From an uncultured Verrucomicrobiae bacterium (GTDB taxonomy: Bacteria > Verrucomicrobiota > Verrucomicrobiia > Limisphaerales > Palsa-1400), in assembly GCA_963702845.1 (NCBI GenBank), contig OY969763.1:4192001-4256000 (forward strand): DNA of 64,000 nucleotides, read 5' to 3'. Made by a program: the position numbers and the translations under genes. Positions 407 through 4,329 of this stretch are shown in pieces; positions within the stretch are counted from its first letter, which is position 1; each line of letters begins with the position of its first letter. The notes beneath the pieces are model-generated. The model was not told the origin of the DNA. It searched no databases and saw nothing but the letters and a program-made list of their open reading frames with translations.

Positions 407-948
407 TCAAAAGGCAACCTCTCCGCCAGCGCTCCGCAACGATGGTTCCGCCAACGCATCACGAATCGTTTTCACCGGCAGAAACAACTCAAGCTCATTC
501 GACGGCATCGAAATAAATCCGAATTGCTCGTAATATCGCTTGGCCTGTTGATCTTTCGCATCCACAAAAAGACCGATCCCACCCGCCGAGTTGAAATTTC
601 CATAAACTTCTCCATTGCCGCAACCAACAATATTTTCCCGATGCCTTGCCGTTGCGACATCTTGGCAACGGCCAATCGCCCCAACCGAATGCCAGCTACA
701 TCCCGCGGCAGTTTTTTCGCCTCAACCGGCGTGAGTGACTCTGACTTTATTTGGCAAATGTTCAGTGAAAAGAAACCAAGAATCGGCTTCGGCTCGACTG
801 CCTCCGCATCGATCAAAACGAATGTGCGCGAAATTCCCCGCTCCGCGTGTTGCCGCGCCGTCTGTTTCAGAAACAAGTTCAGAGGCTCACTCCCGCAGTC
901 GAACCCGTCTCGATCGTGAGACTTCGCCAGCAATTCAATCTTACGCAC
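407..948 (-). CDS. GNAT-family acetyltransferase toxin (AtaT/TacT-like), one apparent frameshift near 597
   Basis: HDRDGFDCGSEPLNLFL...RLGRLAV...QRQGIGKILL GNAT-toxin motifs; adding one T in a T-run restores GGIGLFVDAKDQQAKRYYEQFGF...LFLP ending at TGA 407-409. Confidence 0.85.
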
Positions 949-1225
949 GCACCGTGCCCTTAAACGCTTTCACGGCGTCCTTCAAACGCGTGTTGGGTTT
1001 GGGCGGATGATCCAGCAGGGCCAGCACTTGGCGCGCGTCTTTCTGGGAAAGTCGAATGACCGACTCGCGCTCAATCACCCGTTGCGCCTCCAAATACGCC
1101 GTTTGCACTACGAACTGGTTCACCGTCGAACCCAATAGCTCCGCCGCCTGCTCCAACGTGTCTCGCACGCTATCAGACACGCGAGCGGTAATCCTCTTGC
1201 GAGGCTCTTCTAATACACGTTCCAT
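941..1225 (-). CDS. DUF1778 ribbon-helix-helix antitoxin (TacA/AtaR-like)
   Basis: RITARV...LEQAAELLGSTVNQFVVQTA...IRLS...LDHPPKPN..L pattern; overlaps the start of the downstream GNAT gene. Confidence 0.9.
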   Translation of the reverse strand: MERVLEEPRKRITARVSDSVRDTLEQAAELLGSTVNQFVVQTAYLEAQRVIERESVIRLSQKDARQVLALLDHPPKPNTRLKDAVKAFKGTVRA

Positions 1226-2363: not shown

Positions 2364-4329
2364 ATGAGCGACCTTCAAGCCATCGAAGCCGCCTTGGTTC
2401 GGGCTGTGCGCCGTCGGCGTTTGCAGCGCGCCTGGGCAAACTTATGGCGTGGGGTTTTCATCGGCGCGCTCCTCTGGCTCGTTGCTCTCTCCGTTTACAA
2501 ACTCGCCCCGGTTCCGTTCTCCATTGTTCCCATCGCGGGTGTTGCTGGACTTGTTTGCGTCATCGCCGGGTTTCTTTATGGCTGGTTTCATCGTCAAACC
2601 ATTCAGCAAACAGCGCGGTGGCTGGATGAAAAACAAAACCTCCAACAACGCCTCAGCACCGCCTTGGAAATGGCCGAAGGCAATCGCGATGAAAATTGGC
2701 GGCAGCTGTTGATTTCCGATGCCGCAAAGTTTGTGGAGAAGTTCGACCCGCGCAAGCTCCTGCCGTTTCACTTGCCCCGCATCAGCCGATGGTCCTTATT
2801 GATTCTCGCGCTCTGTGCCGGCTTGGGTTTCGTGCCCGAATATCGCAGCAAAGCTTATCTCGATAAAAAGCAGGATGCCGAAGTCATCAGAGCAGTCGGC
2901 GACAAACTGGTCGAACTGACCAAACAAAACCTGCAACGCCGCACGCCGATGATGGAACCGGTTCATAAAGCCGTCGAAAACGTCGAGAAAGTCGGTTTGC
3001 AACTTGGCAAGAATCCGATTACCCGCAGCGACGCGCTGAAAGACCTCGCCAAGGTCCAGGAACAGTTGAAGTCGCAAATGAAGGAGCTGGTCAAGAGCCC
3101 GGCCTATAAAGCGCTCGAACGCTCCGCCCGCAATGAAACCAAAGGCGGCAATACGTTGCCCGACCTGCAAAAGAAAATCGACGCCATGCAAAAGGCGCTT
3201 GGCGACAAAGCTAGCGCTGATGCGATGGACAAGCTGAATCAGAAAATGCATCAGGCCAAAGCCGCCGCCGCCGCGATGCCTAACGATGGCTCGGCAAAAT
3301 CCCAAGAGGCCAAAGCCCAGATGGAAAAGATGCTTTCCGAGCTGAACAAGGAAGCAAAGGACATGGGCCAGCAAATTCCAAATCTCGACGCCGCGATTGA
3401 AGCGTTGAAAAAGGGTGAAACAGAAAATTTCGCGAAGGACATGGAAGCAGCCACAACCGATTTGGAAAAGCTGAAGGACATGGCCAAGCAACTTGAATCG
3501 ATGCAGAAGGAAGCCGCGCAGATGGGCAAAGATCTTCCGCAACAATTGCAACGCGGCCAGGCCGAAGCGGCGCAGCAGACTTTGCAGAAGATGATCGAAC
3601 AATTGAAGTCCGGCAAACTGTCCAAGGAAGATGCACAGAAGATGCTCGACGAAGTTTCGCGTTCGGTTGATCCGGCGAGTCCTTACGGCAAAGCGGCAGA
3701 CTTTCTGAAACAAGCGACCAAGGAAATGCAGAACGGACAAAAGCCCGACGCAGCACAATCGCTCGCCAATGCTTCGAAGGAACTTCAGAACGCGATGGAA
3801 CAAATGCAGGACGCTCAATCGATGATGGCGTCGTTGGACGCACTGGACAAAGCCGAGACTGCCATCGCCAATCGCAAGGCATTTGGCACATGTCCGTGGT
3901 GCGGCAAGAAAGGTGGTACGTGAAGCGGTGGCATGTGCGCGAACGGTCGTTCGCGATCAGGCCCGGGAGGGCGAGGCGGGAATGGTGTCGGCACATGGGC
4001 CGATGAAAATGGTTTGTATCCCGGTTGGGCGAATGGCGAGAACACCGAAAACCGACCGGACATGGCTGGTAAAGGCCAGACGGACCGTGGCGATGGCCAA
4101 CTCGCCCAAAACCTGAATCCTGAAAAAGTTCACGGACAAGTCAGTCCTGGCGGCCAGATGCCGAGCATCACGCTCAAAGGTTTAAGCATCAAAGGAAACA
4201 GTTCAGTGGAGTAACCAGGAAGCCGCCAGTGCCGCACAAAGCGAAGCGCAGAGCGCGCTGAATCACGACCAGGTGCCGCGCGCTTACCAAGGCGCGGTGA
4301 AGGATTACTTCGACGATCTCAAGAAGTAG
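2364..4329 (+). CDS. Membrane-anchored long coiled-coil protein (DUF4175-like) with an in-frame TGA at 3921 and an apparent +1 indel at about 4213
   Basis: N-terminal TM helices, QRLSTALE motif, Gln/Lys/Met-rich coiled coil; frame continues past TGA 3921 (SGGMCANG...); removing one A at 4213 gives the tail EYQEAASAAQSEAQSALNHDQVPRAYQGAVKDYFDDLKK*. Confidence 0.75.

Follow-up and report, generated by a model that had tools for sequence, protein, structure and literature searches.

The closest described counterparts of the gene reported here are the bacterial selenoproteins made by the SelABCD/bSECIS system. As catalogued in Table 1 of PMC13188914, they resemble it in having a UGA codon on a Cys column, a hairpin, the full machinery, and a selenocysteine (Sec, U) near a Cys. 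Among them, subfamilies with differing Sec positions are also known, e.g. forms 1-5 of rhodanese. By gene order, the closest systems are the modules of MoxR, DUF58 and BatA-vWA proteins (Bat-type modules): in two loci of relatives (L188, L192) the gene lies just upstream of MoxR (AAA_3), followed by DUF58 and BatA+VWA_2. By architecture, it is reminiscent of DUF4175 (PF13779), which likewise combines N-terminal transmembrane (TM) segments with a long helical region, and of the Rad50/SMC zinc-hook proteins, with which it shares a CPxCG motif after a long helix and weak profile matches.

The window gene and its apparent ends

The window, i.e. the whole stretch of 64,000 nucleotides that was analyzed, belongs to a genome labelled G000; other G labels denote genomes of relatives used for comparison, and L labels denote individual loci. 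The features of the gene are collected in Table 1.

Table 1. Features of the window gene and of its predicted product
Feature	Position	Strand	Remark
Whole gene	2364..4329	+	helical protein with a membrane anchor and predicted Sec at codon 520; intact relatives have about 654 codons
Three predicted TM helices (aa 27-45, 53-71, 140-158)	2442..2837	+	Kyte-Doolittle scan and AlphaFold helices; after an Arg-rich N-terminus
Helical-bundle region (aa ~163-503)	2850..3872	+	AlphaFold pLDDT mostly >85; matches to generic helical bundles only
CPWC (Cys510, Cys513)	3891..3902	+	present in the clade of G000's taxonomic family; absent from the other Sec lineages
In-frame TGA, very probably read as U520	3921..3923	+	Cys in aligned homologues; TGA at the same column in G002, L063 and L064
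Cys525, partner in the U-x4-C pair	3936..3938	+	Cys 2-5 residues after U in 9/9 Sec loci
Putative bacterial SECIS hairpin, CGCGAAC-GGTC-GTTCGCG	3938..3955	+	GGUC loop at 3945-3948 on a 7-bp stem
Conserved C-terminal tail (GVGTW, PSITLKG, VPRAY...YF motifs)	3984..4326	+	invariant alignment columns; lost on UGA termination
Extra A, apparent frameshift	4213	+	assembly error; the base is lacking in the X1, X6 and X7 run contigs; relatives intact

The ORF starts at 2364 and comprises 519 codons up to the TGA at 3921-3923; databases carry such genes as 519-aa truncated hypothetical proteins. The context of this codon, CPWCGKKGGT-TGA-SGGMC, confirms the in-frame UGA within a Cys motif reported in an earlier note on this DNA. 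The note had also described about 95 open codons leading to a plausible C-terminus. The open frame is there, with 96 codons up to a TAA at 4212-4214, but the real end lies elsewhere: the conserved C-terminus runs on in another frame (4213-4329) and stops at a TAG at 4327-4329. Judging from the sequences, the TAA at 4212 is a false gene end, the product of a +1 A frameshift at 4213; the intact relative L063 encodes 654 aa, 88% identical to the window protein. Of four public runs compared, three have contigs without base 4213, one such contig being otherwise identical over 151 nt, and we therefore regard the extra A as an error of the assembly.

The in-frame TGA and the comparisons below make it very probable that the gene encodes a selenoprotein whose in-frame TGA is decoded as Sec by SelB-dependent insertion.

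A probable toxin-antitoxin pair lies on the minus strand of the window (472-1225), with a TacA1-like antitoxin (PF08681) first and a GNAT-like ORF after it. The GNAT-like ORF is seemingly frameshifted near its end and has no Pfam match at E<=0.001.

Cys and Sec forms among the homologues

The names of homologues (Limisphaerales, Verrucomicrobiae, Pedosphaera) point to Verrucomicrobiota as the phylum of the organism. Among 1161 homologues, 120 were listed and 115 of these could be classified by their linker: 62 have the CxxC-x6-C-x4/5-C spacing, 35 have CxxC-x4-CxxC, and 18 are of other types. The window TGA aligns to the third Cys of the homologues. Cys residues 513/516/523/529 of G003 have the same spacing as positions 510/513/U520/526 of L063. 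A TGA occupies the same column in the DNA of G002, a member of the same genus, and of two metagenome contigs, L063 and L064. The five remaining listed proteins (78-97% identical) end one codon before the TGA column, and a cluster look-up added four more that end at this point; all nine were compared at the level of the protein ends. Within G000's taxonomic family the gene region is present in 22 of 31 genomes, with TGA in two; the contig of a third genus member spans only the N-terminal 310 aa. The CxxC-x4-CxxC homologues (35/115), among them P0012, P0030, P0128, L218 and L219, form a second clade, whose linker shows GxG spacing and thus another Cys arrangement at this place.

Across the order, homologues were found in 260 of 401 genomes, and the best 150 of 280 matches, which were listed, comprise six with a single TGA and none with TAA or TAG. 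Altogether there are nine distinct DNA loci with a TGA in the linker, distributed over four families of the order. The forms outside G000's family come from family f19 (G130, G182 and G048, 3/3; motif IGSGK-U-LG-x2-C), family f77 (G106, 1/1; IGNGR-U-MGIGC) and family f81 (G364, one of the 12 with the gene; GWG-U-KGC). Searching these 401 genomes for a pattern that requires TGA-NNN-GG and GVGTW, and that other forms can escape, gave 19 matches, of which the six that are in frame within a homologue are the same six, and no further in-frame case. The unpublished genome G334 is counted only in the tallies of the 401-genome TGA scan and of this pattern search. Among the 80 matches listed from a degenerate DNA pattern scan, one was a homologous locus; it duplicates a known one and was counted once. 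In a sample of the whole phylum only two of 151 genomes, G000 included, have a homologue, so the protein family seems to occur for the most part within the order.

All seven TGA genomes have a selA match (in G130 a partial gene, below the cut-off), against a background of 39/101 in the order. For the three outside lineages the estimate for chance is about 0.39 cubed. Kin are not independent, however, and the nine loci amount to about four lineages, so the association gives modest support and is weak when taken by itself. selB was detected in four of the five TGA genomes outside G000's genus and not found in G130, whose genome is 78% complete.

Sec sits at three alignment columns. In a quick IQ-TREE tree (LG+G4, unrooted and without a mixture model), calculated from 56 of 81 rows after removal of the linker columns and of 25 redundant, partial or divergent rows, the Sec forms occupy four positions, each amid Cys-containing or Cys-less neighbors. 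The AU test rejects a single Sec clade (p 1.6e-80) but not a clade of f19 and f77, which share a column (p 0.45). Because of the three columns and the lack of a single Sec clade, Cys seems to have been converted to Sec on at least three separate occasions; repeated loss with shifts between columns would be a less simple account of the same alignment.

Domain architecture and the linker

The third TM segment is borderline, exceeding the Kyte-Doolittle threshold in four of the seven proteins scanned. Membrane topology can be predicted by the positive-inside rule, which here suggests an N-in, C-out orientation with the remainder of the protein extracytoplasmic. AlphaFold models the helices with confidence up to residue 503, with the linker and the tail beyond at low confidence; for the tail folded alone, pLDDT stays <50 in the greater part of aa 529-633. 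Searching the PDB by sequence and by fold returned generic helical bundles only (best Z 11.8). An affinity to DUF4175, suspected at first sight, is weak: the window protein has no match to DUF4175 at E<=0.1. Five of 57 family members match it at E<=0.01, the best with 4.2e-5, a value of the order seen with generic helical models; more members, 12 of 57, match the generic helical BAR model.

The tail is the most conserved part of the protein. The alignments place the majority of invariant columns in it, and termination at the UGA would therefore strip them off. The distance from the UGA to the family C-terminus is 134-144 codons in seven complete, intact loci. By rough counting, dN/dS is 0.06-0.15 downstream of the UGA compared to 0.04-0.06 upstream, which on this sequence-based measure places the coding sequence past the UGA under purifying selection.

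The linker itself is variable. Among the 58 distant representatives that could be classified (of 150 listed), 51 are without CxxC and 18 have no Cys at all within the 50 residues examined. This suggests a dispensable linker and argues against an essential catalytic role. None of the five Sec forms in the three other families has a CxxC ahead of U, which leaves U-x2-5-C as the unit shared by all Sec forms. Those f19, f77 and f81 forms that were scanned have no S/Se residue outside the TM region other than U and a single Cys.

These features bear on whether Sec, once inserted, serves a structural metal clasp, which could be a knot around Zn or Fe-S or, as in the Rad50 zinc hook, a link between subunits. 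In G000's genus the CxxC-x6-U-x4-C arrangement taken from the outset for a metal or redox site is indeed present and offers four S/Se ligands; four Cys residues are likewise available in the 62 and 35 homologues of the two main linker types. Moreover, CPxCG follows a long helix, a likeness to the Rad50 zinc hook, and weak Rad50 profile matches end there (28 bits against a cut-off of 700). The site does not extend to the five Sec forms elsewhere, in which U and a single Cys could not make up a four-ligand site within one chain, and many homologues possess no such ligand. We therefore consider a clasp possible, if somewhat unlikely, as the role of the Sec residue.

Gene neighborhood and proposed function

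Genomic neighborhood analysis placed MoxR directly downstream in 29 of 61 gene ends. By group, these are 29 of 37 outside G000's family, none of 22 inside it and neither of two metagenome contigs; MoxR adjoins all five Sec forms outside the family. In L192 and L193 the cluster extends further, to genes for a solute-binding protein and for a permease fused to an NHL-repeat protein. The arrangement that is contiguous in other families is split in G000, where the partners lie megabases away from the window gene: MoxR+DUF58 at G000:C1 1193462-1195408, and BatA/vWA with the solute-binding protein and permease-NHL at 4940415-4945516.

From this gene order, the protein would most likely serve the MoxR AAA+/DUF58/BatA-vWA chaperone module as an accessory or client subunit. 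It would consist of the three-TM anchor and helical bundles, a flexible Gly/Cys-rich linker carrying U-x2-5-C, and the tail, which probably folds on a partner. We give about an even chance to the proposal that U and the nearby Cys form a reversible selenenylsulfide, probably extracytoplasmic, acting as a redox switch or an oxidant buffer for the MoxR/vWA module; in G000's genus a metal site may be present in addition, provided by the extra CxxC. The link of Bat operons to oxidative-stress survival, reported for Bacteroidota (PMC11834572), fits such a redox role by analogy. In the literature searched, no selenoprotein was found described for MoxR/vWA modules.

Alternatively, Sec could be decoded while its value lies in a selenium-gated switch between full-length and truncated protein, or it could be near-neutral in a tolerant linker. 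The change of Sec column between lineages (three columns) and the dispensability of the linker are in line with such readings, and termination would spare the anchor and helical bundles while removing the most conserved tail. Against them, U is always at or beside a Cys column and a Cys always follows 2-5 residues on, which points to chemistry, and the upkeep of a SECIS is costly; we consider this pair of readings unlikely. A more specific version, a gate sensing both selenium and redox state, for which several lineages would have placed the UGA independently in the linker of a MoxR/vWA-linked protein, appears quite improbable to us. With selenium, the full protein would be made, including the partner-binding tail and the U-C redox pair; lacking selenium, the cell would make a tail-less membrane protein and the chaperone module would be uncoupled. 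If this were true, selenocysteine would be serving regulation in a protein that is not an enzyme, and this use would have arisen repeatedly and at different positions.

SECIS-like hairpins and termination at the UGA

Under the selenoprotein reading, SelB would bind a hairpin with a G-containing loop 21-22 nt past the UGA and deliver Sec-tRNA(Sec), and the insertion of Sec would let translation run on into the conserved tail. The SECIS loop of E. coli fdhF contains GGUC. The hairpin noticed earlier in the window was recovered as described, with its 7-bp stem and a loop starting at +22, i.e. after a 21-nt spacer; its energy in isolation is -9.6 kcal/mol, and only four of 1000 synonymous-codon resamplings fold as stably.

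The geometry is shared by all nine TGA loci, which have an uninterrupted stem of 6-8 bp, a spacer of 21-22 nt and an isolated energy of -7.6 to -14.2 kcal/mol, with five different stem sequences among them. In eight of the nine, G is at +23, as it is in G000's own Rdx, whose hairpin belongs to the same spacing class (spacer 22). Compared with G000, G002 and L063 have gained one codon before the stem and lost one within it, keeping the 21-nt spacer and the loop; in ungapped register all six pairs of their stems are unlike those of G000. Synonymous resampling yields 1-20/1000 for six loci and is not significant for the other three hairpins (G048, 72/1000; G002, 96/1000; L063, 99/1000). As judged by a custom script, the nine loci satisfy the bSECIS constraints given in the Fig. 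2 legend of PMC13188914. No match was found in Rfam.

For background, we used a hairpin test demanding G in the first two loop positions, a spacer of 16-37 and an energy <= -7.5. A hairpin of this kind follows 89 of 3000 Cys codons sampled from G000 and 19 of 901 TGAs that serve there as ordinary stops; these strict filters were modelled on the target, and we do not read the pass rates as probabilities. The Rdx control scored only -6.5, so the sensitivity of the test is incomplete. Two of 12 Cys-form orthologues pass it, with spacers of 26-27, and four of the 12 have weak hairpins at spacer 21.

A true stop, with the gene naturally split and the tail made from a nearby ATG, or a pseudogene, would leave the UGA without a decoding role. 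An ATG does occur 1-5 codons past the UGA in five of the nine loci (G000, G002, L063, L064, G106), and UGA is a common stop in G000, ending 581 of 1642 long coding ORFs. In G130, G182 and G048, however, no ATG, GTG or TTG appears until codon 65-85, beyond the invariant GVGTW at codon 21-22, and a split is thereby excluded in these three f19 genes. The codon is TGA, never TAA or TAG, in 9/9 loci, it falls on Cys columns, and its hairpin keeps a fixed spacing; decay as a pseudogene is excluded by the purifying selection. Termination as the normal fate of the UGA is thus very improbable.

Still further from plausible is an error in the indel-prone single-contig assembly, the true codon being TGC or TGT; we rate it extremely improbable. 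The +1 A in the same gene is one instance of such errors, and a NuoG-like gene near C1 1436.9 kb is apparently frameshifted as well. The contigs of all four public runs, moreover, end short of the TGA at 3921-3923. Against this explanation stand the same-column TGA in G002 and in two independent metagenome contigs, and at least five other database proteins that end at the same point.

Selenium machinery and UGA use

In G000, selA, selB and selD all score over the NCBIfam cut-offs and form one cluster with a tRNA-Sec(UCA), the only UCA tRNA of the genome. On the minus strand of G000:C1, at ~2714.2-2719.0 kb (L010:7268-13032), the order is Rdx(Sec)-tRNA-Sec-selD(Sec)-selA-transglutaminase-like ORF (PF01841)-selB, followed by pntAB; the transglutaminase-like gene thus lies inside the Sec machinery cluster. 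Both SelD and SelW/Rdx of G000 have an in-frame UGA of their own, followed by GUU-loop hairpins after spacers of 33 and 22, and the same holds for SelD and Rdx of G002. The selenoprotein with a SECIS proposed in the earlier note, which had pointed to selA-selD and to Cys/TGA alternation as places to look, is therefore supported by a complete set of selA, selB, selC and selD in G000, by Cys in the homologues at the column where G002, L063 and L064 have TGA, by the conserved hairpin geometry, and by independent lineages.

Genome-wide reassignment of UGA to Trp or Cys, of which the Trp variety is reported for some Verrucomicrobiota (PMC13462651), is on sequence grounds excluded for G000, its probability being practically nil, by the 581 of 1642 ORFs ending in TGA, a prfB over its cut-off, a sole UCA tRNA that is tRNA-Sec, and the Cys that homologues in G000's family carry at the TGA column.

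A filtered dicodon scan of G000 for read-through UGAs gave 502 candidates and recovered SelD, Rdx and the target. Eleven further candidates were inspected and resembled adjoining genes or true ends. No Sec form was found among the molybdopterin and AhpC-TSA families of G000, the single TGA among these candidates being due to the frameshift in the NuoG-like gene. In other genera of G000's family (L201-L203, from G017, G008 and G005) selA is present, SelD is matched without a UGA in long open frames, and there is no Rdx match; the selenoproteins of these three genomes must therefore differ from SelD and Rdx.

Comparison with known systems

As far as our searches reach, the family is probably an uncatalogued selenoprotein family that uses the standard decoding mechanism, in line with the initial impression of an unfamiliar class. 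No NCBIfam selenoprotein model (June 2026) matches any of the five Sec forms, while the Rdx control was matched. In PMC13188914, a 2026 review, the text does not mention 'Verrucomicrob', 'coiled' or 'DUF4175', and Table 1, compared by name, has no row naming a membrane-anchored helical-bundle or MoxR/vWA-linked protein. The one supplement of PMC13326102 (BSepDB) contains no match to the terms searched. Literature on selenocysteine in Limisphaerales/Pedosphaera and on selenoproteins with MoxR yielded nothing relevant; subscription papers and the candidate lists of a groundwater MAG study (ref. 66 in PMC13188914) could hold the family.

Unlike the catalogued bacterial selenoproteins, the present family has no enzyme fold, and its predicted Sec lies in a variable, dispensable linker. 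As a selenoprotein family it would thus lie apart from the oxidoreductase folds that are usual in this group. At least three Cys-to-Sec conversions in one dispensable linker, with differing stems at the same spacing, would constitute a natural experiment on the origin of SECIS elements, and the same conversions inform on what SelB of this lineage reads.

In contrast to the Rad50/SMC zinc-hook proteins, the present protein has no ATPase head, is membrane anchored and scores far below the cut-off; its last bundle helix leads into an unstructured Gly-rich linker, with no return helix.

For MoxR-DUF58-vWA modules, whose clients and oxidative-stress link are largely unexplained, the selenol would provide a chemical handle. 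Compared with Bat-type modules, the clusters described here additionally encode an NHL-repeat protein and, in L192 and L193, a solute-binding protein; in these two loci the NHL-repeat protein is fused to the permease. In G000's taxonomic family the gene has become detached from MoxR.
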